Below are positions 11,757-44,950 of a stretch of 64,000 nucleotides of DNA, piece after piece. The stretch lies in NCBI GenBank assembly GCA_001790815.1, contig MGDU01000001.1, forward strand, positions 2,982 through 66,981. The letters run 5' to 3'. Source of the stretch: Candidatus Uhrbacteria bacterium RIFCSPHIGHO2_02_FULL_46_47. GTDB lineage: Bacteria; Patescibacteriota; Patescibacteriia; GWA2-47-26. Every line of letters begins with the position of its first letter. The stretch's first letter is position 1. Below the pieces are notes generated by a model, which saw nothing but the letters and a program-made list of their open reading frames with translations, did no database searches and was not told the DNA's origin. Position numbers and translations under genes: made by a program.

Positions 11757-12040
11757 GATTTCGCTTATCGTGTTACTCATCCTATTAAGGATGGGCATGG
11801 TCATTTCTGCCATGCTCTGCATGTCGCCATGCAGATCGGACTCTATCTTCTCCACGTATTTGATACGGGAGTCTGGCATATAGTCTCTACGGACTCTCTC
11901 AACACTTTCGTGTTAAGGTTGCCTCGGTATTGTCTCGATGCTTATCGAGATGTTCACCGATATAGTCAGATTTTCTTCTACATCTTCGCAGGCATTGCGA
12001 AGTTCGAAGGGGGTCTTTCACCCCACTAAGGCAGCAATTC
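11757..12040 (-). mobile_element. group I intron 6 in 23S (~1917), ORF-less
   Basis: Exon ..GUCCUAAGGU (12045) joins AGCGAAAUCCC (11757); core gtagtctctacggactctct..ggttgcctcggtatt is nearly identical to intron 1. Confidence 0.45.
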
Positions 12041-12744
12041 CACCTTAGGACGATTATAGTTATCGCCGGCGTTCATCAGCGCTTCGGTTCAAAGCTGCCG
12101 CGCGCCTTGCGGCGCACATGACTTCTCTCCTTAACGTTCTGACACTGGCCAGGCATCAGCCCCTATACATTGTCTTACGACTTCGCAGGGACCTATGTTT
12201 TTGGTAAACAGTCACTTGAGAGACGCTTGTTGCAGCCCCGCTTGCGCGGGGCAGGCCTTATCCCTAAGTTACGGCCACTTTTTTGCCGAGTTCCTAAACG
12301 AGGGTTCTCTCGTTCACCTTGGCACAATTGTGCCCGGGGACCTGTGTCGGTTTACGGTACGGTTGCCAAAAGACAGGGCTTCAAAGCTTTTCTAGGCGTA
12401 CTCTTTACTCTCATCTGATCCACCTTGCGGCTTCACATTACCCTTTGCAGGGACGTGCGTATCCAAAAACACGCGGGAACTCCGAGAACGCGCACCTTGA
12501 AATGACTCTTTCGGCAGTGCAGGAATATTAACCTGCTGTCCATCGACTACGCCTTTCGGCCTCGCCTTAGGACCGACTAACCCTGGGACGATTTGCGTTG
12601 CCCAGGAAACCTTCCCCTTACGGTGTGAAGGGTTCTCACCTTCATTTGTGCTACTTATGCCAACATTCTCTCTTCTTGCCGCTCCATGGCGGCTCACGCC
12701 TACCACTTCAACGCAGCAAGAATGCTCCCCTACCGCCGACGCTC

Positions 12745-12885
12745 CGCGTCGGAATTTCTAATTTCTAATTGACCTAATTTCTAATAAAATTTCCAATGCC
12801 CAATGTTTAATTTCCAAGTTTGGTTATTAGGTATTGGTACTTTTGGATTTTATTAGGTGAATTAGGTGAATTAGGTGAATTAGAC
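12745..12885 (-). repeat. AT-rich palindromic expansion hairpin inside 23S (replaces E. coli helix ~1165-1185)
   Basis: aatttctaatttctaatt...attaggtgaattaggtgaattaggtgaattag arms are near reverse complements; no group I core; flanked by contiguous exon sequence. Confidence 0.5.
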
Positions 12886-12976
12886 ATTTCCCGATGCGAA
12901 GCATCGACTCTTGTCTTCGGTACGCCGCTTAAGCCCCGGTACATTTTCGGCGCGGCACGGCTCGACCAGTGAGCTG

Positions 12977-13025
<49 letters not shown>

Positions 13026-15252
13026 TTGAGCCGCACCACTTCCTTTCACACTGAGCGGTCCCGATGCCCTTGCGGGATACGGGATGCCGACTTCACGTCG
13101 GCACGATTTTGGGACCTTAGACGAAGATCAGGGCTGTATCCCTTTTGAGCGATGGAGCTTAGCCCCCATGCTCTGACTCCCAAGGTACATCATACGGCAT
13201 TCGGAGTTTGATTCGATGCGACGGATTGCTCCGCCACGATCGATTCAGTGCTCTACCTCCGCAGACAATCCTTGAGGCTATACCACAGTATATTTCGGGG
13301 AGAACCAGCTATTACCCAGTTCGATTGGCATTTCACCTCTAACCACAGATCATCCCAAAGTGTTGCACAGCTTACGGGTTCGGGCCTCCATCTGTCTTTC
13401 GACAAACTTCACCCTGTCCATGGTTAGCTCACTGGGTTTCGGGTCTTGTGCACGCTGCTTGTCCGCAGATTTATCGACGCAGATAACGCTGATACAAATC
13501 AGCGAAATCAGCGCCAAAAAATCAGCGGGGTCGCCCTTTCAGACTTGGTTTCCCTGCGCCTTCGTCCCGTAGGACTTAGACTTTGCAACGCGCAACAAAC
13601 TCGTTGGCTCATTCTTCAATAGGAACACCATAACCGCTACGTAGCAGCGGAAATCCGAATTTCGAAATCCGAATGTCGAAATTTAATTCGTCATTCGTCA
13701 TTCTGGTTTCGTCATTCCCGATGCTACGCATCGGCGTTGATTCCTTGTAAGCGTATGGTTTCAGGTTTTATTTCATCGGCCTCACCGGCCTACTTTTCAC
13801 CTTTCCCTCATGGTACTTGTTCACTATCGGTGATGGAGGAGTATTTAGCCTTGGCGCATAGTCGCGCCGGTTTCCCACGGGATTTCACGTGTCCCGCGGT
13901 ACTCAAGTATAGTCATAGTAAGGCGATAACCCCTTTCGCGTACGGGACTGTCACCCTCTTTGGTTCCGCATTCCAGCGGATTCTACTAGGGAAGCTATGC
14001 TTTGTACACCCTACCTCGCCTTTCAAGGCAGCGATCATGACAAACTTACAACTTCTTCTACTTATGTAGCCCTTGAGCCTTCCGCAACGCACGTAGCGTC
14101 ACACCTTTCGATGCAACACTCGCCTCGCTACTTAAAAGTAGAAGATCTAGGCTTTTCCCCGTTCGCTCGCCACTACTAGGGGAATATCCACAAAAAATCG
14201 GGCACGAAACTCACGAAATAATTTCGTGTCTTTTCGTGTTTCAATTTTCGTGGTCTTTATTTTCTTTTCCTCTGGTTACTGAGATGTTTCACTTCACCAG
14301 GTTTACTTCGCCCACATTGCTGTGGGAGATTATGCAGTTCAACACTGCATAGGGTTGCCCCATTCGGACATCGCCGGATCAAAGCTTGCTTGCCAGCTCC
14401 CCGACGCTTATCGCAGGCTGCTACGTCCTTCATCGCCTCTCCATCCCAAGGCATCCACCATACGCCCTTGACACTGAAGCACAAATTTAGATTCTTTTGA
14501 TAATAGTTGACTAGTCGAAACTAGCAACTCGTTTTGATGCGATTACTCTCTACTAATTAAATTGTCAAAGTTCTCCAGTTCGCACCACAGATCAGATGGT
14601 CAACCTCATCTCTGAAGCGAAAATAAAAGATCCCGCGTACGCGGGACCCGTAAATTACACCGAAAAAAGACGGCTACCCGCTAGGACAAGTTAATTTCAG
14701 AACTTTTCGCATATTTAAGCTTAAAATTCAGCCTCCTTACCGTCTGTATCTTGCACCTGCTAGTATGCCATATCCCTTAAAATGTGTCAACCCCAGCCCT
14801 TCCACAGGGTATTCACAATGGGCTACAACCGCGGCGATTCCGCGCGCGACGAAGCCAGCAACGGCCACGACCCGCGCTTCGCCTAGCCGCACCTTCCCAC
14901 CTTCCACCACGCACCCGCTCTTCACACCCACCGCAAGCAACGCCATGTCTCCCCGACCTCTGGCGTTCTTCTTTTTATGCAAAAATGTAGCCGCAGGTCT
15001 TTAGCCTGCGTTCAATTGCGCCACCTAAAGAGCGGCGACTACAATTATGATGACTCCACATAAGAAAAACACCTTGGTAAGTCAACCACATCTATCCACA
15101 CCCTACATTGACAAACTATATGAATGTGGTATGCTTACAGTGGTTATCAATTCGAGGAATCACACTCCTACGAGGAGTCACTAAGCAGCCCACAAGGGCT
15201 GTTTTGCGTTAAAGCGCTATACAATATGAATCAGGAATTTTTGATTTATTAT

Positions 15253-16578: not shown

Positions 16579-17264
16579 AACTCCCTTGCCTCTCCAATTT
16601 TGAGCGGGACGAATTCAATGCCGGTGTCTTTGAGGCCGGTTTGGAAAATCATATACCACGGCATCTCAGGCCAACGAAGGATGGCATCGTGGATCGGAAT
16701 TGCAAATTTCGGCTTTAATTTTTTCACAAATTCCAATCCCTCCCGCACTGCCATCCATGGGGCAACCACCGGCACCGCAAGAATTTCGGCATGCACTTCT
16801 TCCGAAGGCGCGACGCAATCCCCTGGATGCAGTAACCGTTCACCAATAAAAAATCCTACATTTTCACAGTGTGGAATGTGATCAGCAATATGGCCGTGAT
16901 CGCAGGCAATGCCGCGAATGGTCACTCCGTGTACTATGCGCTCTTCTCCGCGGCCTAACACTGCACTGCCAGTGATTCCATTTTGTTCCAACACTTTCCG
17001 CACTGCTGTGTTTGTCAAAATAACCAATTCCGAGATTGGCGCGATCGCGCCGTTTTCGGAATGCTTATTTTTGAGAATAATTTTAAGCGCTTCGGGATAG
17101 GTATGGTCTGGATGTTCGTGCGTCAAAAGTAGTACATTACACTCCGGCAAATCTTCCGGCTTGACCAAGGAATCCTTAAACACATAATTTCCCGGATCAA
17201 TCAAAATCCGCGCTTCGCCTTCCTCAATATAAAGGCATGAGTGTCCGTACTTTGTAATACGCAT
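16575..17264 (-). CDS. MBL-fold metallo-hydrolase
   Basis: LLLTHEHPDH (HxHxDH) motif. Confidence 0.6.
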   Translation of the reverse strand: MRITKYGHSCLYIEEGEARILIDPGNYVFKDSLVKPEDLPECNVLLLTHEHPDHTYPEALKIILKNKHSENGAIAPISELVILTNTAVRKVLEQNGITGSAVLGRGEERIVHGVTIRGIACDHGHIADHIPHCENVGFFIGERLLHPGDCVAPSEEVHAEILAVPVVAPWMAVREGLEFVKKLKPKFAIPIHDAILRWPEMPWYMIFQTGLKDTGIEFVPLKIGEAREF

Positions 17265-23598: not shown

Positions 23599-25086
23599 AT
23601 GAATTACTACTACATACTACTTACTACGTTCTACATACTATTTACAGTTCTTGCGTGGAAACGCCTAAACTGGGCTGTACTTTTTGTAATTGCCGCACTT
23701 CCGTCTTATCTAATTCGCTTCCGCGTTGGCCCGATTCCGATGACTGTACTGGAGGGAATGATTCTCATAATTTTTGCTGTCTGGTTCGTCAAACGAAATT
23801 CGCGAATTCATAACCCCTCCTCACCTCCCCTTAACTTAAGGGGAGGCAGGGTAGGGTTATCATTTTACATTCCGCTGTTACTTTTTCTCCTTGCCTCCAC
23901 TCTTTCTATGTTTGTTTCTCCGGACTTGCGTGCCGCTTCCGGGATTTGGAAAGCATATTTTGTAGAACCAATATTATTTTTCTTTGTGCTCCGCGATCTT
24001 ATTCGAAACCACGTTACACGTTACACGTTACACGTTACGCAAATCATAGCCGCCCTTTCCCTTACTGCTCTAGCACTCTCCCTCTACGCCATTTACCAAC
24101 GCTTCACGGGCTTTGGAATTCCACCACCCTGGGATACAGAGTTGCGCGTGACCAGCATTTTCCCCTACCCCAACGCGCTTGCGCTTTTCCTTGCTCCGCT
24201 TGTGCCATTGTTTATTGCACAACTTCTCACTAAATTTCGTCATTCTGAGCGTAGCGAAGAATCTCGCGCGAATGCGCGGCAGTTATTTGTTATTGGTTAT
24301 TGGTTGTTAGTCACAATTGCGACAATTGTTGCGATTGTCTTTGCAAAATCCACCGGCGCGATGGTGGGGATTGCGGCCGGACTTTTATTAATATATGCAC
24401 TTTGGTTCGTGCGGTCAAAAACCTACGATCGTAGTAAATTGACCGCAACGAAATTCTACATACTACATACTACATACTACATACTTGCGATCGCCGGACT
24501 GACTATACTTTTACTGCGGGTTATGCCAAGTATAAAGGACGAGCTATTATTGCGCGACTGGTCCGGCCATGTGCGGCGCACGCAGTGGACGGAAACTTGG
24601 CAAATGCTTAAAGACACCTCCACGCCACTCGGTGCAGGTCGCCCAATCCTTGGCGCTGGCCTAGCGGGCTATAAAGAAACGCTTGCGCCATACCACAAAG
24701 CAACCTACCTTGAGATTTTTGAATATCCACACAATATCGTGCTCAATTTCTGGTCAGAAACCGGACTACTGGGCCTCTTCGCCTTTGTGTGGCTTATCAT
24801 AATTTTCTTTCGCACAACATTCCCCTCCCTTAGGTCCGACGCTTCAGTCGGACTCCGACCCAGCAGGGCGTCGGAGATAAGGGAGGGTAGGGTGGGTTAT
24901 GAACCGTATACCATCGCGGTCATGACCAGTATGGTCGTCGTATTGATCCACGGCCTCGTTGACGTTCCATACTTCAAAAACGATCTTGCTATTTTGTTCT
25001 GGATCGTGTATGCTTTGGGAATGGAACTTTCAAAATCAACGCTTTCGCAACCCCTCTTGACAACAGATAAGGACGTGATATACTAG
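23599..25086 (+). CDS. O-antigen ligase (Wzy_C/WaaL-like) family membrane protein with in-frame repeat insertions
   Basis: Polytopic protein; YPHNIVLNFWSETGLLGL matches the H..N..L...E.G..G ligase motif; start ATG lies inside a repeat element. Confidence 0.55.
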   Translation: MNYYYILLTTFYILFTVLAWKRLNWAVLFVIAALPSYLIRFRVGPIPMTVLEGMILIIFAVWFVKRNSRIHNPSSPPLNLRGGRVGLSFYIPLLLFLLASTLSMFVSPDLRAASGIWKAYFVEPILFFFVLRDLIRNHVTRYTLHVTQIIAALSLTALALSLYAIYQRFTGFGIPPPWDTELRVTSIFPYPNALALFLAPLVPLFIAQLLTKFRHSERSEESRANARQLFVIGYWLLVTIATIVAIVFAKSTGAMVGIAAGLLLIYALWFVRSKTYDRSKLTATKFYILHTTYYILAIAGLTILLLRVMPSIKDELLLRDWSGHVRRTQWTETWQMLKDTSTPLGAGRPILGAGLAGYKETLAPYHKATYLEIFEYPHNIVLNFWSETGLLGLFAFVWLIIIFFRTTFPSLRSDASVGLRPSRASEIREGRVGYEPYTIAVMTSMVVVLIHGLVDVPYFKNDLAILFWIVYALGMELSKSTLSQPLLTTDKDVIY

Positions 25087-25710: not shown

Positions 25711-25950
25711 GGAGGGGTGCTCCGAATGGCTAACCCCGCACCAGAGCAGAGCTCGATGCGGGGCATGGGAACCGGCGGTGTCCCGTATGGAGAGCGGAGG
25801 GTTGTGCCGAACGGCTAAGGCACTGGTCTCGAAAACCAGCGGGCGCAAGCCCTTGCAGGTTCGAATCCTGCACCCTCCGCTCTCTCGTGCGGGATTTCGA
25901 AAACCGGCGCTCGCAAGGGCATGTGGGTTCGACTCCCACCCCCTCCGCCA
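25711..25950 (+). ncRNA. outer tRNA-like structure whose halves flank tRNA-Ser (split/intron-containing or rearranged second tRNA-Ser copy?)
   Basis: 5' GGAGGGGUGCUCCGAAUGGCUAA is homologous to the tRNA-Ser 5' end; 3' ..UUCGAAAACCGG-CGCUCGCAAGGGCAU-GUGGGUUCGACUCCCAC-CCCCUCC-G-CCA is homologous to the tRNA-Ser 3' half and pairs with the 5' GGAGGGG as an acceptor stem; encoded CCA. Confidence 0.3.
25796..25879 (+). tRNA. tRNA-Ser (anticodon CGA), class II with long variable arm
   Basis: GGAGGGU/ACCCUCC acceptor, U8, anticodon loop CUCGAAA, variable arm CGGGCGCAAGCCCUU, T arm GCAGGUUCGAAUCCUGC. Confidence 0.75.
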
Positions 25951-26065: not shown

Positions 26066-26515
26066 ATGATCAATCCACACTATATTAGTGGTTTAATCGA
26101 TGGTGAGGGAACCTTCACCTATACAAAAAATGGAGGAAGGGTTTATCCCTATTTTGCCATCAAGCTTAATGTAAAAGATCTGCCTTTACTTGAAAAAATT
26201 AAAGAATTTTTTGGTTGTGGAGAGATATACCATAGTCCTGCGCGAACATATACTATGAACGGTTTCACATATACTTCCGGAGAATTAGTAAACTTAAAGG
26301 TTTTTCGTATGGATGAGTTGATGAAGCTGGTGTGGCATTTTTTGGATTACCCTTTGGAAGGTAAAAAAGCAGAAGCCTTCAAAATTTGGAAAGAAATGGT
26401 TATGATTAAAACTGTGAATCGAAAAGAAGACTGGCCAAAACTACATGATCTTGCAGAAAAGCTTACTTTGGCCAATGGAGGAAAAAAGAAAAGACCTCGC
26501 AAGGGCAAGACTTGA
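26066..26515 (+). CDS. free-standing LAGLIDADG homing endonuclease (single motif, 149 aa)
   Basis: YISGLIDGEGTF motif; basic C-terminal tail. Confidence 0.7.
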   Translation: MINPHYISGLIDGEGTFTYTKNGGRVYPYFAIKLNVKDLPLLEKIKEFFGCGEIYHSPARTYTMNGFTYTSGELVNLKVFRMDELMKLVWHFLDYPLEGKKAEAFKIWKEMVMIKTVNRKEDWPKLHDLAEKLTLANGGKKKRPRKGKT

Positions 26516-26792: not shown

Positions 26793-27746
26793 ATGGCTCA
26801 AAGCAGAAGGTCTTGGTCCAGGGGAAGAGCCAGAACAACAGGAGAAAAGACCTTGAACACGGTCAAGCGGACAGAGTTTCACCCCGACAAGTTCGCCGTG
26901 CTTGCGGCGATCGACCCGAACCTGCGGATCGAGCAGATTCGCGGGGTCTGCGTGGCGCCCGACGGCCAGAACATCGCCCTCTTCACGACGGAGGCGGGCC
27001 AGCGGATCGGCGAGAAGCGCGCGCTCGGCGTGTACGAGTACGGCAAGGACCACGCCGTCGACACGTTCACCGAGGTGGAGGGCGTGCAGTTGCTCTCCGG
27101 CACTCCGGGCATCCAGAACAACCCCGCGCGCGCGAGCATCGTCAAGGGCCTGAAGGGGCTGTTCGTGCGCGAGGACAAGAACGTGCTCGTGTGCAGCAAG
27201 CCCACGGGCGTGATCGGCTACTACCTCTACTCGAGCCCGACGGCGGAGCCGATCGACCTCACGACGCAGGACCTGGACTTCACCGAGGTGGTGTTCCTGC
27301 CCAAGCCCCGTGGCTACGTGGCTCGCGAGGCAAGGAGCAACTGCCTGTGGTTCCTGCCATTCGCAACCGCCAAGACGGGCACGGCCGGGCGGGTCGCCTG
27401 GAACATGAGCAACGCGCTACCCGGCGTCTCGGCGATCATGTCGCTACCGCCGCGGATCCAGAACAACCGCGCGGTGCTCTGCTCGACGCTCGAAGGCGAT
27501 CGGCAGTGCAGCGACACGCTCAACCTGTCGAGCATCGGAAGCAGTCAGATCACGAGCGTCGCGCGCGAGGGCGATGTCAACAGCATCGTCTTCCGCTGCT
27601 TCGCGAGCCACGAGGTCGCGATCATCGAGGTGGGCGTCGGGGCCAAGACGCTGGAACCCGGGACCTGGCAGGTTCCGACGGCTGATCTGCCGGAGCTCTT
27701 CGGCAAGGCAGGCGCCGCGCTCGTCTCGGCTTCGGCTCCGCTCTAG
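26793..27746 (+). CDS. hypothetical protein in a 68%-GC island
   Basis: Only frame with balanced composition; other overlapping ORFs are Arg/Ala-rich GC artefacts. Confidence 0.4.
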   Translation: MAQSRRSWSRGRARTTGEKTLNTVKRTEFHPDKFAVLAAIDPNLRIEQIRGVCVAPDGQNIALFTTEAGQRIGEKRALGVYEYGKDHAVDTFTEVEGVQLLSGTPGIQNNPARASIVKGLKGLFVREDKNVLVCSKPTGVIGYYLYSSPTAEPIDLTTQDLDFTEVVFLPKPRGYVAREARSNCLWFLPFATAKTGTAGRVAWNMSNALPGVSAIMSLPPRIQNNRAVLCSTLEGDRQCSDTLNLSSIGSSQITSVAREGDVNSIVFRCFASHEVAIIEVGVGAKTLEPGTWQVPTADLPELFGKAGAALVSASAPL

Positions 27747-27916: not shown

Positions 27917-30439
27917 ATGTCCAAAGAACGCTTTATGATAATTGACGGCAATGCCCTGGTGCACCGGGCATTTCATGCGCTTCCGCCGCTTTCCACCAAA
28001 GACGGTAAAATAGTCAATGCCGTATATGGATTTACAACAGTTTTGATGAAGGCATTGAAGGAGCTCAAGCCGGAATACGCGGCGGTAACTTTTGATTTAG
28101 CCGCGCCGACTTTTCGGCACAAGTTATACAAAGAATATAAAGCGCAACGTATAAAACAGCCGCAAGAATTATATGATCAACTGCCACTGGTTAAAGAAGT
28201 GGTGCGCGCGTTTGATATTCCGGTAGTGGAGAAAGAGGGATTTGAAGCTGATGATGTAATCGCGACTTTGTCGCGAAAATCCCAAATCCCAAGCACCAAA
28301 TCACAAATCGAAACGATTATTGTAACTGGAGACATGGACACATTGCAACTTGTGGATGAGAATACCAAAATTTACAGTTTTCGCAAAGGATTTTCCGATA
28401 CATTTATCTATGATGCACAAGCAGTGCAAGAGCGCTATGGACTCACGCCGGAGCAAATGGTGGATTACAAGGCCTTGCGCGGCGACCCATCTGACAATAT
28501 TCCGGGTGTGCGCGGTATTGGCGAAAAAACTGCTGTGGAATTATTGAAGGAGTTTAGCTCAGTAGAAAAACTATACAAAGAAATTGATAAAGAAAGTGTA
28601 CGCGCTAAAACAATACGGCCCAAAGTGTTGGAGCTGTTAAAACAATATCGAGAAGACGCAATGCTTGGCAAGAAGCTGGTGGAATTGGTAAAAGATGTGC
28701 CGCTTTCAGTATCGCTCAAAGATTGTAAACTAAGCGAACCAGATAAGAATAAGTTGAAAGAGATTTTTGAAAAATTTGAATTCAGGAATTTGTTGGCGCG
28801 ATTGGAAAAAAAAGATGTAGCCGCAGGTCTTCAGCCTGCGCAAAAAGCACAAGGATCGTTGTTGGGTAACCCCTCACCTGACCTTCAGTCATCCTCTCCA
28901 TCAGGGAGAGGGAAGGGTGAGGGTGGGATGTCACCCCTTTATGTTCGTGAAGGCAACACCATCATCGGCCACGATCTAAAATCAATACTACATACTACCC
29001 CCTACGCACTACCTCCTCCATTTTTTGACACCATGATTGCCTCTTATCTTTTGCATCCGGGAAGAGGCATGCATGACTTTGAAAGTGTTTTGCGTGAGCA
29101 CAATATGGAGCTGAATGGTCAAGCAGTGGTATTGCTTGCACAAAAACTTCAAGGGGAGCTGGCAAAAGAGAATCTCACGCCAGTATTTGAAAGTATTGAA
29201 ATGCCGCTTATTCCAGTGCTTGCGAAAATGGAGGGGATTGGCATTAAAGTGGATACGCCCTATTTAAAAAAATTATCTGTGCAATTTGCCAAAGAGTTAG
29301 ACGGATTTCAGAAAAAAATCCACAAACTCGCGGGCGAGGAATTTAATATTGCCTCACCAATGCAGTTACGCGAGGTGCTGTTTGAAAAAATGAAACTAGC
29401 TCCGGAAACTGGTCGCATTAAAAAAACCGCCAAAGGCAAAGTTGCCTCCACTGCCGCGGGCGAGCTTGAAAAATTGCGCGGACTACACCCCATTGTGGAT
29501 TTAATTTTTGATTATCGCGAGATTGCCAAATTGCAATCCACCTATACTGACGCTCTTATAGAATTAGTTGATAAAAAAGACGGCCGGGTGCACACTACTT
29601 TTAATCAAGCTGTAACTGCTACGGGTCGACTCTCCTCATCAAGTCCTAATTTGCAAAATATTCCGATTCGCACTGAAACCGGACGCCTGATTCGCAAAGC
29701 CTTTGTGGCTGAAAAAGGATATGTGCTTTTGTCTGCGGATTATTCGCAAATTGAATTGCGCGTAGCGGCTTCGCTTTCCGGCGATCCTGAACTTATTAAG
29801 GCATTTAAAAGTGGACATGATTTTCATGCCCATACCGCCTCATTGATGTTTGGTGTAGCTGAGGATAAAGTAACCAAGGAGATGCGGCGCAATGCCAAAG
29901 CCATTAATTTTGGAATTATTTATGGCATGGGTGCCACTGCGCTTGCGCAATCAACCGGTATGCCGCGCTATGAAGCCGAACAATTTATCGCGCGTTATTT
30001 TGAAGTGTTTAATGGCTTGCGCGATTATTTGGAAGGGTTAAAAGAGAAAGCCCGCACCAAAGGATATGTAGAAACGCTTTTTGGCCGCCGGCGATATCTT
30101 CCGGAAATAAATTCCGGTGTGCAACAAGTCCGCGCCGCGGCCGAGCGCATGGCCATTAATATGCCGGTTCAAGGCACCGCAGCAGATTTGATGAAAATGG
30201 CCATGATTAAAATTCATCAAGAACTACGTGCTACTTCCTACATACTACATACTAATGCACGCATGCTTCTCCAAGTGCATGATGAATTGGTCTTTGAAAT
30301 TAAAGAAGATCAAGTGACAGAAATTGCACCAAAAATTAAATCCATCATGGAAACCGTGCACACTTTCAAAGTCCCAATCCTTGTAGAACTCAAAACAGGC
30401 AAAAATTGGGGAGAGCTTTCTCCATTTTCCTCCCCTTAG
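27917..30439 (+). CDS. polA: DNA polymerase I
   Basis: 5'-3' exonuclease N-terminus (IIDGNALVHRAFHAL); polymerase motifs (RRNAKAINFGIIYG, QVHDELVFE); contains in-frame repeat insertions and a repeat-encoded C-terminus. Confidence 0.9.
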   Translation: MSKERFMIIDGNALVHRAFHALPPLSTKDGKIVNAVYGFTTVLMKALKELKPEYAAVTFDLAAPTFRHKLYKEYKAQRIKQPQELYDQLPLVKEVVRAFDIPVVEKEGFEADDVIATLSRKSQIPSTKSQIETIIVTGDMDTLQLVDENTKIYSFRKGFSDTFIYDAQAVQERYGLTPEQMVDYKALRGDPSDNIPGVRGIGEKTAVELLKEFSSVEKLYKEIDKESVRAKTIRPKVLELLKQYREDAMLGKKLVELVKDVPLSVSLKDCKLSEPDKNKLKEIFEKFEFRNLLARLEKKDVAAGLQPAQKAQGSLLGNPSPDLQSSSPSGRGKGEGGMSPLYVREGNTIIGHDLKSILHTTPYALPPPFFDTMIASYLLHPGRGMHDFESVLREHNMELNGQAVVLLAQKLQGELAKENLTPVFESIEMPLIPVLAKMEGIGIKVDTPYLKKLSVQFAKELDGFQKKIHKLAGEEFNIASPMQLREVLFEKMKLAPETGRIKKTAKGKVASTAAGELEKLRGLHPIVDLIFDYREIAKLQSTYTDALIELVDKKDGRVHTTFNQAVTATGRLSSSSPNLQNIPIRTETGRLIRKAFVAEKGYVLLSADYSQIELRVAASLSGDPELIKAFKSGHDFHAHTASLMFGVAEDKVTKEMRRNAKAINFGIIYGMGATALAQSTGMPRYEAEQFIARYFEVFNGLRDYLEGLKEKARTKGYVETLFGRRRYLPEINSGVQQVRAAAERMAINMPVQGTAADLMKMAMIKIHQELRATSYILHTNARMLLQVHDELVFEIKEDQVTEIAPKIKSIMETVHTFKVPILVELKTGKNWGELSPFSSP

Positions 30440-30598
30440 GTCCGACGTTCCAGTCGGACTCCGTACCGCAGCGTCGGAGATAAGGAAGAGCTAGAGGGGT
30501 TTATGAAACATGCTATAATACCAATACTATGAACGCATTTGAATGGGCCAAGGCAAAAGAAGCAGTAATACCGCCAATGAAGTGCATTAAAATAATCT

Positions 30599-30877
30599 AT
30601 GCGAGTTGATATCAGTAAATTTGGGGAATCTTTACTTTCAAGACCTGCCGGACGGGAGGCCGCTTTGGCATTGCAAGCAAATGTATTGCGCGATCTTAAG
30701 GAGGGAGAGCTTATTGAATTAGATTTTGGGAAAGTATTGGTTTTAACACCTTCATGGGCAGATGAGTTTCTTACTATGTTGCACGCACAATATGGAAAAC
30801 GCATTAAGATACTTCCATCAGACAATCCCAGTGTTCAGCTTACGCTTAAGACGATTGGTGAGCCAGTGCCGGTATAG
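30599..30877 (+). CDS. STAS-like small protein (DUF4325-like)
   Basis: 92 aa; ELDFGKVLVLTPSWADEFL pattern; followed by a hairpin terminator. Confidence 0.35.
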   Translation: MRVDISKFGESLLSRPAGREAALALQANVLRDLKEGELIELDFGKVLVLTPSWADEFLTMLHAQYGKRIKILPSDNPSVQLTLKTIGEPVPV

Positions 30878-30897
30878 ATGACCATTATAATTTGCAA

Positions 30898-31050
30898 GCA
30901 AAAAATCCGCCTGCCATGGCGGATTTTTTGTAATAAAATGATAACGGCTCAATATTTTGCGATCGCAAATACTTGAGTCGTTTGTTTTTAATGGGTGGAT
31001 AAAAAGAAAGGGCCGGGGGGAACGTGCCCGGCGCACGGAAGGATGGTTAT
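30898..31050 (+). repeat. 155-bp direct repeat, copy 1 (includes a terminator hairpin)
   Basis: aaatccgcctgccatggcggat...taataaaatgataacggctcaatattttgcgatcgcaaatacttgagtcgtttgtttttaatgggtgga...gtgcccggcgcacggaagga, nearly identical to 32024-32180. Confidence 0.8.
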
Positions 31051-31404
31051 GGTAGAAGTGCGAGCAGTTTCTTTTGAGCAGTTTCGCGGGGCTTGCCGCA
31101 CTTCAGGCAGAAGCGATCCCAATCACCAATGATATGGCCACACTGCCCGCAATCCTTGTAGGTGATGATGCATCTTGAGGTTTTCTGCTTAGGGTTGCTT
31201 GGCAACAATTGTGGAAGCGATTGTGATATAATGGTGTAGCCCCTCGACTAAGCTCGGGGAATACTAAGAGGAGATTGCCGCGGCCTTTGGCCTCGCAATG
31301 ACAAACTTAACTATGCCGCAGACGTATACTATTAATGCCTTCGCGATTGGCAGGGGGATGGATTTGACAAAGGAAGCAGAATTAGATAAAGTAGAATTAT
31401 CATT

Positions 31405-31617
31405 ATGGCTACCACCACCGCCCAGCAACTTAACACACAATTAAAGAAAATAGAGCATCAGCTCGCGGATATTCGCGGGCATCTTGTCCTACTTGAAGGA
31501 GATACGCAAAATAAACGCGCCCAAGTGCTTCAACGCACTGCCGGGGCTCTTAAGCATAAAGTTATGGATGATGTAGTGGCATGGCAAAAAAGGATTCGGT
31601 CAGAATGGGATGCGTAA
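31405..31617 (+). CDS. putative antitoxin (70 aa) paired with VapC
   Basis: Small helical ORF ending 7 bp before the PIN gene. Confidence 0.4.
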   Translation: MATTTAQQLNTQLKKIEHQLADIRGHLVLLEGDTQNKRAQVLQRTAGALKHKVMDDVVAWQKRIRSEWDA

Positions 31618-31623
31618 GATGAT

Positions 31624-31983
31624 ATGCGTATTTTACTTGATACTAATATTCTTTTGCTCCATCTTAAGGAGGGCATTCTTAAAAGGGTTCCTCCAGAGAT
31701 GGAGCTTTGTGTATCAGTGATCACTGTTGCGGAAGCCCTTCGATATCCGGGATTGGGAGATAATGATCTCAAAATTATTAGTGATCTTCTTGATATTATG
31801 GTGACTTTTGATATTGACTTGTTGATTGCGCGCCGTGCCGCCGAACTTGGGAGAACAAGGGCAACAAAACTCCCAGATCTTCTCATTGCGGCAACTGCGC
31901 TTGAGATGCATGCACCGCTTATTACTAAAAATATCCATGATTTTAAGGGAATTCCAGAACTCATCGCGCGAGAACATATTTAA
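31624..31983 (+). CDS. vapC: PIN-domain toxin (VapC-like)
   Basis: ILLDTNILL ... DLLIAATALEMHAPLITKNIHDF acidic PIN residues. Confidence 0.7.
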   Translation: MRILLDTNILLLHLKEGILKRVPPEMELCVSVITVAEALRYPGLGDNDLKIISDLLDIMVTFDIDLLIARRAAELGRTRATKLPDLLIAATALEMHAPLITKNIHDFKGIPELIAREHI

Positions 31984-32023
31984 TGAATTCATTTCCCGCC
32001 TAGCATTTTAACAAAATAATAAA

Positions 32024-32180
32024 CAAGAAATCCGCCTGCCATGGCGGATGTTTAGTAATAAAATGATAACGGCTCAATATTTTGCGATCGCAAATACTTG
32101 AGTCGTTTGTTTTTAATGGGTGGAGAAAAGAAAAAGCCGGGATTGAAACGTGCCCGGCGCACGGAAGGAACGTGGAAGGA
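32024..32180 (+). repeat. 155-bp direct repeat, copy 2
   Basis: See copy 1; the copies diverge after ..gcacggaagga. Confidence 0.8.
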
Positions 32181-32198
32181 TGATTTGTTTTTAGTGAA

Positions 32199-32969
32199 CT
32201 ATGCGTCCTGTGGATGAGTCTGCGCAGCGGCGCGGCGGACGCGCAGCCCTTGGAGCCAACGCTCGCGCAGGCTTGGCGGGGCAAAGGCGCTGATCTGCTC
32301 GAGCCGCTCGCGCGCTTCCTGCCCGATCTTGGACTTGGTGCGATCACGCGACTCCTTGAGCCAGTCAATCGTCTCGTAGACGCCGACGCCCAAGTGGTCA
32401 AGTCCCAGCACCATGCTTTCAAAGTCGGCCACGCTTGAGAAACGCGCCACGATCGGCAGTAGCCGCAGGACCGGAAGCGCAAGCCCATGTCCCCACTTAT
32501 CGCGAATCCACACGACCTCCAGTCCGTTCCAGGCGTGTGACACGGTCCAGAAGCAGGCGGGCGCCATGCCCACGACCTTGCCCGGCTTGCGAAACCAGCC
32601 GCCGTGGCGGACTTGGATGTAGACCGCGGGCTGCGGATAGGGCAGAGCCGTGTGGATGTGCTCGGTCCCGTCTTGGCCGAGAAAGAGATAGAGGATTCGA
32701 CCGATGATGTTGCGCCCGACGAACAGCCACAGCCCAGTCGTCATAATCAGGAAGATGAGGATGAGGACCAGGAATACGACCACCGTCAGAAAGGCCACGG
32801 ACCAGTAGTGATGCGCCTGGAAATCGACTACTAACCAGTAGAACGTGGAGCCCAGGAGGACGACGAACAGCACGTAGAGCAGAATATACATGGACTCGCG
32901 CCAGAGCATCGGGCCCACGGTTTTATCCTGAAGACACTCCTCACACCTCTTGTATTTCGTTGTCATCAT
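32199..32969 (-). CDS. hypothetical membrane protein in a ~62%-GC block
   Basis: Two or three N-terminal TM helices; other-frame ORFs here are GC artefacts. Confidence 0.4.
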   Translation of the reverse strand: MMTTKYKRCEECLQDKTVGPMLWRESMYILLYVLFVVLLGSTFYWLVVDFQAHHYWSVAFLTVVVFLVLILIFLIMTTGLWLFVGRNIIGRILYLFLGQDGTEHIHTALPYPQPAVYIQVRHGGWFRKPGKVVGMAPACFWTVSHAWNGLEVVWIRDKWGHGLALPVLRLLPIVARFSSVADFESMVLGLDHLGVGVYETIDWLKESRDRTKSKIGQEARERLEQISAFAPPSLRERWLQGLRVRRAAAQTHPQDA

Positions 32970-33162
32970 GCCGAACCTCCTAGCTCATAGGCCCTTGTCC
33001 CACGAGCGGAAGTGCCAAGGCCGGCCATCTTGCACCATGCAAGCAGCCCGTCCAGGGCATTTTTGAAGAACTAGATTGATTAAAACAAAAAAAGCGTGTT
33101 TTGTCAATACTTCGACATGAATAGGGGGAAGCGGTATAATTAGTGTGTTAAGTAAAAGCAAT

Positions 33163-33942
33163 ATGCCACAAACATATTCAATCAATGCCTTTGCAATTGG
33201 CAGGGGGATGGATTTGACGCGGATGTTGAAAAAGCCGCCGTTTCCGGTGGCGGAGAAAGAGCGCAATTTGGTAGTATTACAACCGGGTGGAGAATCGTAT
33301 ATTTTTGCGTTTTCATTTGGCGCTTTGGTCTTTTTCAATGTCAAAAACGAAAAGAAAGTAGCAGGCAGTTTCCGTAAATACGCGCACGCGGTAATTCCAA
33401 AACTGATTCGCGAAGATTACAGTGTGGCCATTGGCAATGAAACTGACGCGGTAACTTTTGACGAGGTGCGTATTAAGGAATTTTCTTTGGATAAATTGAT
33501 TTTGATTGCCACAGTGCTGGCTCAATCAGTATCAGTAGAGCACATTGAAAATGTGGTGGAAACCGTACTGCATAAATTTGAGCGCATTAATTTGAATTTG
33601 GAACGCGAAAGCAAACTGCGCGTGCGCGGTAGTGATCTGATTAAGATTCTGGGTACGACCAATTTGATTTTACAGCAGATTCTTTCGCGTCTTTCTCTGT
33701 TGGACAAGCCGGATATTACTTGGGATTCGCCGGAATTGGAAACGCTGTTTGGGCACATGCGCAAAATGTACGAACTGGATGATCGTTTTCGGGCTGTGGA
33801 GTTTAAGTTGGATTCCATTCAAGATAATTCAAAAGCGCTCTTGTCCATTTTGCAAACTAGACGATCAGAGCGCCTTGAAATTATAATTGTGGCGTTGATT
33901 TTGATTGAGGTGGTGCTGTTCGTGTATGAGTTGTTTCGATGA
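33163..33942 (+). CDS. DUF155 / RMD1-family protein with C-terminal TM helix
   Basis: Domain-level similarity; its first ~57 nt (MPQTYSINAFAIGRGMDL) are duplicated at 31314-31370. Confidence 0.5.
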   Translation: MPQTYSINAFAIGRGMDLTRMLKKPPFPVAEKERNLVVLQPGGESYIFAFSFGALVFFNVKNEKKVAGSFRKYAHAVIPKLIREDYSVAIGNETDAVTFDEVRIKEFSLDKLILIATVLAQSVSVEHIENVVETVLHKFERINLNLERESKLRVRGSDLIKILGTTNLILQQILSRLSLLDKPDITWDSPELETLFGHMRKMYELDDRFRAVEFKLDSIQDNSKALLSILQTRRSERLEIIIVALILIEVVLFVYELFR

Positions 33943-33951
33943 TTGCGCAGG

Positions 33952-35235
33952 CTAAAGACCTGCGGCTACCTGTTTTAGCCAGTTAATCACTTTTCGATTC
34001 ATAAGTATGTTGGTTAGATATTGTCGAGCGCCGACAGAGCGGATTTGTTCATGCTGTTCTGGCGCGTCTTTGTATAATTCCAAAACACGCGCGACTTCCG
34101 CGTCAATTTCTTCTTCGGTTGCGGAGATGTTTTGGGTGTGCGCCAATTTGCGCATTAAGAGCGCTGTTTTAACTCGCTTTATCGCTTGCGGCGCAAAGTC
34201 CAGCCGCAGTTGATCGCGTGTTTTGCCAATTTTTTGCAAGTAGTCGTTGAATTCCAGACCTTGCCGCGCAATACCGTCTTCCAGCTCAGCCAGCATTTTG
34301 TGTGTTTCTTCATTTACTAAAATATCCGGCACATCGGAAAATTTAGTTTTTTCAATGGCCTTTTCCAAAAGCTCAATTTCGCCGCGCTCCTCGTCTTTTT
34401 GCTTGGCCTCGTGCTCTAAATTACCGTGAATAATGGTTTTAAGATCAGCAATGGTTTTTTGACCAAGCTCTTGCGCAAATTCATCCGTAAGTTCCGGCCG
34501 CGTCAGTTCAAACACATCTTTGATTTCAATTTTAAAATCCACATCCTTGCCCGCAATCATTTTCTGATAATGTTCTTTAGGGAATTTAAGTTGAAATTCC
34601 TTAGTGTCGCCTTTTTTCAGTCCAACCAGTTGTTCTTTAAGGCCCGGCACATAATATTCCTCATCCATATAAACCGCGTGATCTTTGGTCACTCCGCCAT
34701 CAAGTGGCACGCTGTCCAGCGACATCGCCATATCCAATACAACTTTGTCCTCCGCCAAGGCGGGGCGGCTTGCCACCACTTCTTTGGTTTGCATTTTGCG
34801 CAAATCTTTAAGGACTTTATCTACTTTTGCAGCTTCAACTGTTGTAGTTTTTCTTTCCAATTTTATTGATGAATAATCACCCAGGGTTACCTCTGGCAAA
34901 AGCGCAATAGTGGCTTTAAAAATAAATGGGTTATCCGCGGCGAGTTTAATGACTGCAATTTCCGGAGAGCCAATAGTTTCCAGATTTTCTTTTTTTACCG
35001 TCTCAGTAAAGGAGCGCGGCACCGCAAGTTGCGCGGCTTCTTCCCAAACACGCTGTGCTCCAAAGCGGGCCACGACTTGTTCATAGGGCGCTTTACCCGG
35101 ACGAAATCCCGGAATAGAGGACTCACTGCTCATTTGCGCGGCCGCTTTCTGCAAATACGATTGCATGTCCTCCGGCGCAAGTTCAATGGTAATCTCTACA
35201 GCACTTTTGGGTAAGGATTTGAGGGTGTGTTTCAT
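33952..35235 (-). CDS. tig: trigger factor
   Basis: N-terminal ribosome-binding domain with GFRPGKAP motif, central PPIase-like and C-terminal domains; 427 aa. Confidence 0.85.
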   Translation of the reverse strand: MKHTLKSLPKSAVEITIELAPEDMQSYLQKAAAQMSSESSIPGFRPGKAPYEQVVARFGAQRVWEEAAQLAVPRSFTETVKKENLETIGSPEIAVIKLAADNPFIFKATIALLPEVTLGDYSSIKLERKTTTVEAAKVDKVLKDLRKMQTKEVVASRPALAEDKVVLDMAMSLDSVPLDGGVTKDHAVYMDEEYYVPGLKEQLVGLKKGDTKEFQLKFPKEHYQKMIAGKDVDFKIEIKDVFELTRPELTDEFAQELGQKTIADLKTIIHGNLEHEAKQKDEERGEIELLEKAIEKTKFSDVPDILVNEETHKMLAELEDGIARQGLEFNDYLQKIGKTRDQLRLDFAPQAIKRVKTALLMRKLAHTQNISATEEEIDAEVARVLELYKDAPEQHEQIRSVGARQYLTNILMNRKVINWLKQVAAGL

Positions 35236-41935: not shown

Positions 41936-42275
41936 TTTACTGCATTTTCACTTCGTTCAAATGCAGTATTCTTGAATTAGTCCGAACGCATTTCGCCGCC
42001 TGCGGCGGCGAGGGAGTCCCCTCGCGAAATTCCGAAATCTCGGCTCCGCCGCACCGCTGACAATTTTCCCGCCACATATTTTAAACTTTTGGAAGGCGGG
42101 ATTGCGTTTTGTAACTTCGCTTCGCTCAGACAAAACGGGAACAAGTTTTTCTTTGGTGGCAAATTCTTTTATGAAAATTCTTAATTCAAAAATTAAAAAA
42201 GAAAGCGGGCGGGACACTTATCGTGCCACGCCCGTGATTGTGCGGTTGCCATCTTCGTACCGCCGCGGTTATGAG

Positions 42276-42695
42276 TCAGCGATGACTCTGGTCGGCGTCG
42301 AGGACCGCTTGGCTTCCGCCGATGAACAGAGCGTGGAAGTAGCTGTCGCGGAGCGCTTCCTTGATTTCGTCCAGATTCGGCGCGTCCTCGTAGCCCTGCG
42401 GCGTCAGAATGACCCGCTGATCGTTCACCGGCTTGCCATGGAAGACGTGGTTTCCGTCTGTGAGGCCGATGTACCAGCCGCGGTCGAACTCGCACTCCTT
42501 CAGTGCACAGGTGTTGGGGCCTCCGGTGGGAACTGCCGTCGCCTTGACTGGGGGGTCGAAGCGATAATACTTCCCACGAACCAGTTTCTGCTGCGCCGCG
42601 TTGTTGGCGACGACATGGTCTGCCGTCATTGTGTCTCTCATCGGAAACTGCATGGCGTTTTGCCTCCTCTCAAGGTTCAGGTTTCGTCGCCGCAA
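42276..42695 (-). CDS. hypothetical protein (GC-rich), copy 1 of the tandemly duplicated gene
   Basis: Most protein-like frame in the repeat unit; likely start at internal MQFPMRD. Confidence 0.4.
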   Translation of the reverse strand: MRRRNLNLERRQNAMQFPMRDTMTADHVVANNAAQQKLVRGKYYRFDPPVKATAVPTGGPNTCALKECEFDRGWYIGLTDGNHVFHGKPVNDQRVILTPQGYEDAPNLDEIKEALRDSYFHALFIGGSQAVLDADQSHR

Positions 42696-43195
42696 CGTGC
42701 AGGCAACGACTATCGGTCTATGATTCCGATAATGTTCAATGTTAGCATACTACGCCATAAAAGTCAAGAGGCGGCAAGTGCCGCCTCTTGGGAGTATTTG
42801 AAAAATTTTTCTTTTCTGCTTCTACAAAATATGGTTCCCGCTCAAATCTTATTTGAGCGAGGCTCGCTCAGATTTCTGAGCGGCGAGCCGACCTGCGCTT
42901 CGCCGAGGCTTCGGCAAGGCGAGTGTTTTTCTACGGGTTCTTTTGCGGTTTTGATTCGTGCGGCGGAGCCGCACCGCTGACAATTTTCCCGCCACATATT
43001 TTAAACTTTTGGAAGGCGGGATTGCGTTTTGTAACTTCGCTTCGCTCAGACAAAACGGGAACAAGTTTTTCTTTGGTGGCAAATTCTTTTATGAAAATTC
43101 TTAATTCAAAAATTAAAAAAGAAAGCGGGCGGGACACTTATCGTGCCACGCCCGTGATTGTGCGGTTGCCATCTTCGTACCGCCGCGGTTATGAG

Positions 43196-43615
43196 TCAGC
43201 GATGACTCTGGTCGGCGTCGAGGACCGCTTGGCTTCCGCCGATGAACAGAGCGTGGAAGTAGCTGTCGCGGAGCGCTTCCTTGATTTCGTCCAGATTCGG
43301 CGCGTCCTCGTAGCCCTGCGGCGTCAGAATGACCCGCTGATCGTTCACCGGCTTGCCATGGAAGACGTGGTTTCCGTCTGTGAGGCCGATGTACCAGCCG
43401 CGGTCGAACTCGCACTCCTTCAGTGCACAGGTGTTGGGGCCTCCGGTGGGAACTGCCGTCGCCTTGACTGGGGGGTCGAAGCGATAATACTTCCCACGAA
43501 CCAGTTTCTGCTGCGCCGCGTTGTTGGCGACGACATGGTCTGCCGTCATTGTGTCTCTCATCGGAAACTGCATGGCGTTTTGCCTCCTCTCAAGGTTCAG
43601 GTTTCGTCGCCGCAA
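43196..43615 (-). CDS. hypothetical protein, copy 2 (100% identical)
   Basis: Identical translation to 42276..42695. Confidence 0.4.
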   Translation of the reverse strand: MRRRNLNLERRQNAMQFPMRDTMTADHVVANNAAQQKLVRGKYYRFDPPVKATAVPTGGPNTCALKECEFDRGWYIGLTDGNHVFHGKPVNDQRVILTPQGYEDAPNLDEIKEALRDSYFHALFIGGSQAVLDADQSHR

Positions 43616-44151
43616 CGTGCAGGCAACGACTATCGGTCTATGATTCCGATAATGTTCAATGTTAGCATACTACGCCATAAAAGTCAAGAGGCGGCAAGTG
43701 CCGCCTCTTGGGAGTATTTGAAAAATTTTTCTTTTCTGCTTCTACAAAATATGGTTCCCGCTCAAATCTTATTTGAGCGAGGCTCGCTCAGATTTCTGAG
43801 CGGCGAGCCGACCTGCGCTTCGCCGAGGCTTCGGCAAGGCGAGTGTTTTTCTACGGGTTCTTTTGCGGTTTTGATTCGTGCGGCGGAGCCGCACCGCTGA
43901 CAATTTTCCCGCCACATATTTTAAACTTTTGGAAGGCGGGATTGCGTTTTGTAACTTCGCTTCGCTCAGACAAAACGGGAACAAGTTTTTCCCTGCCTGC
44001 CGGCAGGCAGGTTTGGCGGCATTCAATCCAAGAATTCGCGAAGCGAATATTTAAAGAATATAGGATTTTAAAAATGATGACAACAACGACAATGAGAAAA
44101 GAGAAACAGGCCGAACGCTCTTACGAACGCTGGCCTGTTGGTTGTGGTTTC

Positions 44152-44643
44152 TCACGGCAGTTCTCCGTTCAGGATTTCCTGCCACGAGTTCACCTGCTTG
44201 ACCCGGTTGAGGAAGCGAGCGTATCGCCGCACTTCATCGGGACGTGGCTGAAAGAGATAGAGCGTGCTCACCGTGGCGAGGTTGCCCAAGATTTCCAATC
44301 GGTCGTCAACGAAGTGGGTGATGCCCAACTCCTCGCAGATACTGGCCTTCTCGTGTCTCTCACGGCAGAAGCGAACACGCTCGCGTCCGATTCCGGTGAG
44401 GTCGTAGAAGCGGTGATGGTCGAGCCATTGCAGGGTTTTGTCCTGCACGCGCTGACCGCACTTCGAGACAAGGAATACCTTGTCGCCGAACCGCTTCTCC
44501 ACGAGCTGGCGCAGAGCGTCGAAGACGCCCGGCACTGCCGTAGTCCGCAGGTAATTGTCAGTGAAGAACGAGGTATCGGTTCCGTCGTTCACTCGGTTGA
44601 TGATGACGCCGCCGATATCGACGCCAAGCGTTTCTGCATTCAA
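44152..44643 (-). CDS. hypothetical HAD-like / 5'-nucleotidase-like protein (GC-rich)
   Basis: N-terminal GVDIGGVII resembles HAD motif I; the opposite-strand ORF 43843..44679 is rejected. Confidence 0.35.
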   Translation of the reverse strand: MNAETLGVDIGGVIINRVNDGTDTSFFTDNYLRTTAVPGVFDALRQLVEKRFGDKVFLVSKCGQRVQDKTLQWLDHHRFYDLTGIGRERVRFCRERHEKASICEELGITHFVDDRLEILGNLATVSTLYLFQPRPDEVRRYARFLNRVKQVNSWQEILNGELP

Positions 44644-44878
44644 CGTTCTGTCCTCCTATCAAGGTACGTTTTAACCTAAGCACCATGCCTAGATTTGAAA
44701 GCAATCATAGCATATCCAGTCTAATACGTCAAGAAGCGGCGTTTGGCCGCTTCTTGGAAAGAATCAGTAGGATTAAAAAATTTTCTTCCCCCAAAATTAA
44801 AATATGGTTCCCGCTCAAATCTTATTTGAGCGAGGCTCGCTCAGATTTCTGAGCGGCAAGCCGATGTTTTTTCCTAAT

Positions 44879-44950
44879 TGCGCCCGGAGGGAATCGAACC
44901 CCCACCAACAGGTTCGAAGCCTGTTATGATATCCATTTCACCACGGGCGC
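44879..44950 (-). tRNA. tRNA-Arg (anticodon TCG)
   Basis: Reverse complement GCGCCCGUGGUGAAAUGGAUAUCAUAACAGGCUUCGAACCUGUUGGUGGGGGUUCGAUUCCCUCCGGGCGCA; anticodon loop CUUCGAA. Confidence 0.7.

Follow-up and report, generated by a model that had tools for sequence, protein, structure and literature searches.

Layout of the polA-DUF155 junction

The DNA analysed here, called the window (64,000 nt; contig MGDU01000001.1, positions 2,982 to 66,981), belongs to Candidatus Uhrbacteria bacterium RIFCSPHIGHO2_02_FULL_46_47, a member of a group of tiny groundwater bacteria. Its junction between polA and a DUF155 gene is occupied by a predicted toxin-antitoxin (TA) pair, vapBC, which is bracketed by two direct repeats (R1 and R2) and by two copies of the DUF155 gene start (D1 and D2). 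The features on which the argument turns are as follows (window positions; aa, amino acids).

30896..31043, no strand: R1, repeat copy made up of three stacked terminator hairpins between convergent genes (T1 30898-30931, H2 30943-30982, T3 31012-31032)
31312..31368, plus strand: D1, the orphaned first 19 codons of DUF155 (MPQTYTINAFAIGRGMDL), joined to cassette DNA at 31369; matches 33162-33218
31405..31617, plus strand: 70-aa putative antitoxin with two long helices, an open reading frame (ORF) 6 nt ahead of the toxin gene
31624..31983, plus strand: 119-aa PIN-domain VapC toxin, predicted (Pfam PF01850, E=2e-9; 38.5 bits against a cut-off of 23.6)
32021..32169, no strand: R2, repeat copy (T1 32030-32049, with degraded A- and T-tracts; H2 32068-32107; T3 32136-32158)
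33163..33942, plus strand: intact DUF155/RMD1-family gene, the first 56 nt of which belong to D2 (Pfam PF02582, E=5e-31)

Read from left to right, the locus consists of polA, DUF4325, R1, a zinc-ribbon ORF (minus strand), a predicted promoter and leader running into D1, the 70-aa gene, the 119-aa PIN gene, R2, a 256-aa gene (minus strand), a second predicted promoter, DUF155 and tig (minus strand). In total 2.7 kb of extra DNA separates polA from DUF155, and the 1.85 kb from D1 to D2 contains only vapBC, R2 and the 256-aa gene. A first-pass annotation, made from the letters alone, had described direct repeats of about 155 bp around the TA pair, and these are real: R1 and R2 align over 143-150 nt with 92-93% identity (blastn E=1e-54), share an identical core of ~75 nt and extend with weak similarity to about 31049/32180, their boundaries lying 1-10 nt from where they had been placed. 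The duplication of the DUF155 5' end upstream of the TA pair, also claimed there, was found as well: D1 and D2 (33162-33218) match over 57 nt at 86% identity (E=9e-11), and the repeat begins one base ahead of the DUF155 ATG.

Repeats of this kind invite the suspicion that the contig is chimeric or mis-joined, and a high-GC segment within a 45% GC genome, together with contigs that break in R2, would fit such an error. Two look-ups gave 23 and 24 contigs that were read, and the DNA of 19 was compared (NCBI, ENA and JGI samples). Across 30400-34000 (3.6 kb), 19/19 independent contigs were 100% identical, barring one variant with four single-nucleotide polymorphisms (SNPs) in R2 and one further SNP. 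Three contigs break off within R2, and at a repeat that is no surprise. Because the same 3.6 kb recurs across many samples, in data from three sources and with more than one assembler, and many of the contigs span every junction, the arrangement is not attributed to assembly, and an artefact is extremely unlikely. All 19 contigs have the same arrangement, with no excised, circular or empty-site form among them, and a look-up of DUF4325-bearing contigs for deletion or empty-site variants again gave only identical contigs. Apparent variants with a "94-aa PIN" gene were rejected, as they merely reflect different gene calls.

The TA operon is apparently intact and of type II, with toxicity and pairing predicted from the two genes. 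The second gene had been called a PIN/VapC toxin, and both the PF01850 match and structural comparison uphold this: the acidic quartet D6, E37, D85 and D106 is intact, D6 and E37 never vary and D85 and D106 hardly vary among 20 homologues, and a profile of the family matches solved VapC structures (7by2, 3.5e-15), including tRNA(fMet) endonucleases. Scores against the NCBIfam VapC equivalogs were far under their cut-offs, and few close relatives appeared among the matches listed in a metagenome scan with the VapC profile. The 70-aa partner is of another sort. It had no match in Pfam, NCBIfam, PADLOC or PDB, and no AbrB/SpoVT, RHH, Phd/YefM or HTH DNA-binding domain was detected in it. An AlphaFold2 model from the single sequence consisted of two long helices alone (pLDDT 78), for which Foldseek returned no fold match. 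The VapB-like fold that had been proposed as a check on this ORF did not emerge from family searches, model or Foldseek, and a canonical VapB DNA-binding fold is thus not supported. An exhaustive HMMER search found 19 cluster representatives (the window's own protein included), 17 of which are small proteins of 65-96 aa with the common motif L..TAGAL...VAWQ(K/R)K.R.EW, which is C-terminal in the window protein; homologous partners of 66-84 aa stand upstream of the VapC homologues in the compared loci L044-L051 (L numbers denote the sequences compared), so the pairing is conserved. The antitoxin is a member of a small, unannotated helical family, absent from the libraries searched.

The duplicated terminators and gene start

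R is a stack of hairpins. T1 (AAAAAATCCGCC-loop-GGCGGATTTTTT) has the form of a bidirectional intrinsic terminator, H2 is a 40-nt hairpin with GCGATCGC at its centre and A-tract and T-tract flanks, and T3 is a GCCGGG..CCCGGC stem followed by a T-run on the minus strand. (The first-pass annotation had listed two hairpins per repeat, the terminator and the GCCGGG..CCCGGC stem; both are present, and a third had been omitted.) T3 is the predicted terminator for the neighbouring minus-strand gene, the end of which is 3 nt distant at R1 and 30 nt distant at R2. R is thus the whole intergenic region between two convergent genes, the stack closing DUF4325 on the plus strand and the next gene on the minus strand. 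In a related locus, L020, whose polA is 74% identical to that of the window, homology with the window is unbroken from DUF4325 through T1 (window 30598-30931), and T1 is orthologous to the L020 DUF4325 terminator. The T3 or right-hand part of R2 is 86% identical (blastn) to L020 2680-2721, a hairpin downstream of the L020 minus-strand high-GC gene; the blastn match is to the R2 copy, and the likeness of the R1 copy was seen by eye. Orthologues in a relative can thus be named for two of the three hairpins, and because T1 and T3 are homologous to L020 counterparts they are inherited host terminators and not the ends of an element. RNAalifold, run on the window and L044 repeats, gave support for T1 only; H2 was misaligned by MAFFT, and its covariation is taken from separate folds alone. 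Rfam, searched with the gathering as well as an E-value threshold, gave no known RNA for R or for the rest of the locus.

R could instead be a dispersed repeat resembling a repetitive extragenic palindromic (REP) element or a miniature inverted-repeat transposable element (MITE), present twice here by chance and unrelated to the TA insertion. The genome does contain other structured intergenic repeats, and GCGATCGC is over-represented in the window (7 occurrences against 1.9 expected), with one further GCGATCGC-centred hairpin at ~17011-17078. The counts at this locus speak against the idea: the 40-nt core hairpin occurs exactly twice in the window (0/100 shuffles), R has just two copies in 64 kb, both at the polA-DUF155 locus, neither terminal inverted repeats nor target duplications accompany it, L020 has orthologues of its parts as single-copy terminators, and a duplication around vapBC is found in L044 as well. 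A chance pair of dispersed repeats is therefore very unlikely. Of the GCGATCGC sites, three (17041 and both H2 copies) are centres of long hairpins with A- and T-tract flanks. The other structured repeat lies at 24818-24903 and 30423-30507 (~75-85 nt, 82% identity, with nested palindromes CCTCCCTTAGGTCCGACG..GTCGGACTCCG..CGTCGGAGATAAGGGAGG); its second copy provides the last codons and stop codon of polA, and it may be a REP-like element.

The two copies of R differ in ways that bear on their history. At the variant sites in T1, R1 has the L020 or L044 state at 3/4, and the changes in R2 disrupt the A- and T-tracts. In one JGI contig the T1 of R2 has R1-type bases at 4/4 of these sites, a sign of gene conversion between the two copies.

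The differences between D1 and D2 are of a different nature. There are eight, of which seven are synonymous third-codon changes and one exchanges Thr and Ser; the chance of so few amino-acid changes (one or none) from eight random substitutions is p=2e-4. Because a drifting pseudogene copy would not show such a synonymous bias, D1 and D2 probably stem from two functional alleles. L056 carries a similar signature: there the first 52 nt of the downstream ruvX-like gene are repeated ahead of a more distantly related PIN cassette, and the two stretches differ at four sites, each of them synonymous (p=3e-3). The ancestry of the intact gene is also mixed: the DUF155 protein is 90% identical to the orthologue of GW2011_GWA2_47_26 (L011), against 65% for the adjacent tig, and third-codon identity between the window and L011 is 0.63 for DUF155 and 0.44 for tig, the latter being the saturation level in all other pairs. 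The region is a mosaic of lineages, since DUF155 is anomalously close to L011 while tig is saturated. The 23-nt identical end of D is the most conserved part of DUF155 and is identical in L011 too.

Three promoter-like features accompany the two gene starts.

31220..31311, plus strand: displaced native DUF155 promoter and leader, as predicted (extended -10, TGATATAAT, at 31224-31232; motif read from sequence)
31364..31392, plus strand: promoter-like site TTGACA-17-TAAAGT across the D1/cassette junction (10/12 matches; consensus match only)
33112..33140, plus strand: promoter-like site P2, TCGACA-17-TATAAT, the predicted promoter of intact DUF155 (11/12 matches; without homology to the displaced promoter region)

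Upstream of D1, the 44 nt at 31220-31263 match the DNA just ahead of DUF155 in L020 at 86% identity, and 31289-31372 (~85 nt) match the DNA ahead of DUF155 in L015 at 76%. The left unit, around D1, looks native by these matches. The sequence upstream of D2 matches neither L020, L015 nor the left unit.

Such observations have to be set against a purely in-situ history, in which a tandem or long target duplication (R to DUF155 codon 19) arose when vapBC inserted, the copies diverged, and one of them afterwards had its minus-strand gene and promoter exchanged for others, all without a contribution from a diverged allele. One unit duplicated around an insert would give exactly the order R1-D1-vapBC-R2-D2, the right-hand junction from vapC to T1 is common to L044 and hence the insertion is old, T1 of R2 has derived, terminator-degrading changes relative to L020 and L044, and gene conversion is evident. 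Other evidence argues against it: a pseudogenised D1 should gain mostly non-synonymous changes, yet seven of the eight are synonymous (as in L056), the interiors of the two units have nothing in common, promoter included, and DUF155 is anomalously near L011 compared with tig. Duplication in situ is accordingly thought unlikely.

Cargo at the junction in related genomes

Relatives were surveyed by a DUF155 profile scan of species-representative genomes, followed by tblastn with the window proteins. DUF155 stands directly after polA (gap 1-240 nt) in at least 12 other Patescibacteria loci (L018, L022, L023, L025, L027-L031 and L033-L035), an adjacency that is the ancestral state. The first-pass annotation had said that a locus identical and syntenic in distant relatives would count against its reading, and the opposite was found. 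Elsewhere the junction is filled differently. In L020 it spans 3.4 kb, with a partner gene and DUF4325, a high-GC gene, TrmB and, on the opposite strand between T1 and T3, an unrelated TA pair of RHH antitoxin and PIN protein. In L032 it spans 1.7 kb and holds two other genes, one homologous to the L020 high-GC gene; in L044 it holds DUF4325 and an orthologous vapBC, DUF155 having been lost; and L029 has a tandem DUF155 duplicate. Because these core genes are adjacent in relatives and the cargo differs per lineage, the junction is considered an insertion hotspot. The shared high-GC genes of L020 (2841-3281, minus strand) and L032 (5747-6388, plus strand), which occupy the same junction in two other Uhrbacteria lineages, belong to no Pfam family and have the motif VIDCDAAPF..HRKGGQ..VLDYLLA.

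Duplications derived from the target recur around such cassettes and are not universal. The L044 VapC is 78% identical to that of the window, its vapC-to-T1 junction is similar, and its vapBC is bracketed by an 83-nt duplication of T1 and an H2-like hairpin with another stem sequence and the same CGATCG centre. At a different locus, L045, the pair is flanked by a 35-nt duplication of the end of the upstream gene, and L056 has the ruvX-like duplication described above. In L046, L127 and L128 a TA pair lies between tandem paralogues. Similar spacing from the gene-start copy to the antitoxin ATG in the window and L056 was considered as a sign of a defined cassette end and dropped, as the distances are 36 and 34 nt and the L056 antitoxin C-terminus differs. 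Paralogue arrays were seen as well: L127 (GCA_030688725.1, 1-5711) has three ~596-aa paralogous genes alternating with three small-gene/PIN pairs, each large gene being followed by a TA pair; T4SS-pilin-like paralogue arrays flank the vapBC homologues of L045, L046 and L128; and at 61998-63880 of the window a 91-nt segment occurs five times in diverged form (67-76%), at intervals of 350-540 nt, so that small paralogous genes probably stand in tandem there. Literature searches on TA cassettes flanked by direct repeats, or in the Candidate Phyla Radiation (CPR), returned nothing specific.

The same comparisons bear on whether the pair is a site-specific mobile cassette, integron-like or a miniature integrative element, with the R hairpins or the 23-nt end of D as its site and a recombinase encoded elsewhere. 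TA pairs are typical cargo of integrons. Structured direct repeats bracket the cassette in two species, D resembles an att duplication that rebuilds the end of a target gene, and the three contigs that end within R2 could also be cited. Several lines of evidence make the idea decidedly improbable. First, the list of genes and Pfam families within 10 kb on either side of the locus contains no recombinase, integrase or transposase, IntI tyrosine recombinase included. Second, H2 lacks the RYYYAAC and GTTRRRY boxes of attC (its flanks TGATAAC and GTTTGTT misfit, and the L044 counterpart is without AAC/GTT ends), and none of 185,579 species genomes matched the H2 pattern, the source genome apparently falling outside that set. 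Third, the recurring target-derived duplications are unrelated in sequence, as at the independent insertions in L045 and L056, which argues against a shared recombination site. Finally, the 23-nt "core" is simply the stretch of DUF155 that is conserved best, T1 and T3 are host terminators with orthologues in L020, and the 19 contigs include no empty or excised form. The earlier suggestion of stepwise insertion and duplication at a hotspot or mobile cassette site therefore holds in outline: the hotspot stands, with varied cargo in L020, L032 and L044, and a mobile cassette site is unlikely, since the repeats are host terminators and neither a recombinase nor an att, attC-type or otherwise conserved site was found.

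The remaining genes of the junction are these.

27917-30439, plus strand: polA, upstream of the insertion region
30524..30564, plus strand: remnant of the N-terminus (MNAFEWAKAKEA..) of the gene preceding DUF4325 in L020 (blastn 83% identity to L020 945-985)
30599..30877, plus strand: DUF4325 (STAS-like) gene, 92 aa, first gene of the insertion region past polA (Pfam PF14213, E=1e-6)
31047..31208, minus strand: zinc-ribbon ORF of 53 aa that starts with TTG (Pfam DZR, E=4e-6, a value right at the curated cut-off)
32199..32969, minus strand: 256-aa orphan membrane-protein gene, in a ~62% GC island (about 32190-33065)

Of the L020-type gene upstream of DUF4325, ~40 nt are left in the window and the remainder has been deleted; DUF4325 itself is 70% identical in protein to the L020 orthologue and 56% to that of L044. 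The zinc-ribbon ORF, overlooked by the first-pass annotation, lies between R1 and the DUF155 fragment and ends 3 nt after R1. It has a GC content of 0.59 at third codon positions (GC3), no homologue in the related loci compared, and is possibly the remnant of a longer gene. A membrane-protein gene of ~62% GC between R2 and DUF155 had been noted before and is there at 32199-32969 on the minus strand, with 2-3 transmembrane segments by hydropathy. Its GC content at the three codon positions is 0.63/0.40/0.79, against a GC3 of 0.33-0.48 in neighbouring genes, a genuine coding signature with foreign codon usage. Against 5.8 billion clustered proteins the protein matched itself alone, Pfam, NCBIfam and PADLOC placed it in no family, and the combination of a GC3 of 0.79 and no homologue suggests a recent foreign acquisition. 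A second high-GC island lies just upstream of polA: its 317-aa ORF (26793-27746, plus strand; GC3 0.89; no Pfam family) adjoins a free-standing LAGLIDADG endonuclease gene (26066-26515) and tRNA-Ser (25796-25880) and, like the 256-aa gene, looks like recent foreign DNA.

Proposed history and known systems

The history that we favour, with somewhat better than even confidence, is that the polA-DUF155 junction is an insertion hotspot at which vapBC was gained by homologous or illegitimate recombination with DNA of a diverged relative, leaving an insertion-duplication. Recombination with a diverged allele seems most likely because the two gene starts appear to come from functional alleles and not from pseudogene drift. 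The donor DNA would have come from a diverged relative that already carried vapBC at the polA-DUF155 locus, and the event would have been an insertion-duplication of the Campbell or "ends-in" type, after which one flank had the resident terminators, promoter and gene start and the opposite flank another such set. The cassette would thereby have been joined to DUF155 after codon 19, the gene surviving through the second copy of its start and another promoter past the cassette. Later on, R1 and R2 would have undergone gene conversion, the left unit would have decayed (its zinc-ribbon ORF has only a TTG start) and the high-GC 256-aa orphan gene would have arrived. At present vapBC may be driven by the native DUF155 promoter, now displaced, or by the one at the junction, R2 could terminate both vapBC and the convergent 256-aa gene, and DUF155 would be expressed from P2.

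Several observations weigh against this history. Local alignment of the unit interiors (31044-31311 against 32170-33161) found nothing above shuffled controls, and because the interiors are unrelated a single clean duplication is insufficient and several events must be assumed. The non-coding R1 and R2 (92%) are more alike than the coding D1 and D2 (86%), so that a foreign-allele origin of R2 fits the R and D identities only if gene conversion is invoked. The synonymous-bias tests for D1/D2 and L056 are based on just eight and four substitutions, respectively. No direct repeats were found around the vapBC homologues in L048, L049, L127, L130 and L131, and neither a donor haplotype (vapBC-R-256aa-DUF155 alone) nor an empty site was found. 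Lastly, all four contigs of the closest DUF155 relative (L011-L014, GW2011_GWA2_47_26 lineage) break 170-215 nt upstream of DUF155. Since these are four independent assemblies, the shared break suggests a repeat or strain variation upstream of DUF155 in that lineage; the first 215 nt of these contigs hold a perfect DnaA-box-like TTATCCACA.

A broader proposition is that PIN TA cassettes with the unannotated helical antitoxin spread in Patescibacteria without a recombinase, through diverged-allele recombination that duplicates the target start and terminators. It is speculative and rather doubtful as a general rule. If true, the target gene would live on a new promoter while the cassette captures the old one, and bacteria with tiny genomes would have a general, transformation-like route for selfish TA modules. 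Taken by itself, the locus is a clean, well-anchored case of a streamlined CPR genome acquiring and tolerating selfish or foreign cargo, with a TA module, an orphan gene of foreign codon usage and gene remnants at one junction of conserved genes. It also illustrates that direct repeats flanking a TA cassette need not signal a mobile element, as here they are host terminators and, probably, a second allele of the target start. The event is of a known kind, an ordinary genome scar, and leaves the current understanding of TA systems and genome plasticity unchanged; what is new is minor, namely the antitoxin family and the recurrent duplication of target starts.

Further features lie elsewhere in the window. 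The 23S rRNA gene (7668-14467, minus strand) is split by large insertions that include two group I introns (8142-8356 and 11817-12051), with 5S rRNA downstream. At 42041-44864 there are three tandem copies of a 920-bp unit (97-100% identical), ending beside tRNA-Arg (44879-44950), and a 66-nt hairpin-rich segment is repeated at 42826, 43746 and 44799. Runs of heptamer-like motifs (CTACATA / CTACTTA) occur at 23602, 24448, 28980, 30216 and 60257, in intergenic DNA and inside polA, where they encode short insertions absent from relatives.

Four known systems offer comparison. With VapBC type II systems the locus shares a two-gene operon, a small upstream gene, a PIN toxin 6 nt downstream and an intact D-E-D-D quartet; the difference lies in the partner, a 70-aa two-helix protein of a small family without an AbrB, RHH, Phd or HTH domain. 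Integron cassettes and attC sites resemble it in having a small, promoter-poor cassette with a structured imperfect palindrome behind it and a copy of that palindrome on either side, and in their TA cargo, but the locus has neither an IntI gene within 10 kb nor attC consensus boxes, its repeats are only two and consist of host terminators, and the flanks of independent insertions are unrelated. In integrative elements that carry the end of a target gene (att in gene), a direct repeat from the target end likewise restores an intact gene; here, however, no integrase gene was found within the would-be element (1.85 kb, D1 to D2), the repeat is 86% identical rather than an identical core with unrelated arms, and a second copy of the host terminators lies inside. 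Merodiploids formed by transformation also resemble the locus in arrangement: when a cassette was transformed into an essential pneumococcal gene, the resulting cells had the gene both intact and interrupted, with repeats at the borders (Johnston et al., 2013; PMC3784515). The pneumococcal duplications are 100-900 kb, compared with 0.5-1.2 kb in the window, where the copies appear to be diverged alleles and where a comparable mechanism would have acted. Like these insertion-duplications, and like homology-facilitated illegitimate recombination, the locus has an interrupted gene beside an intact copy and repeats at its borders, an arrangement for which no dedicated recombinase is needed.

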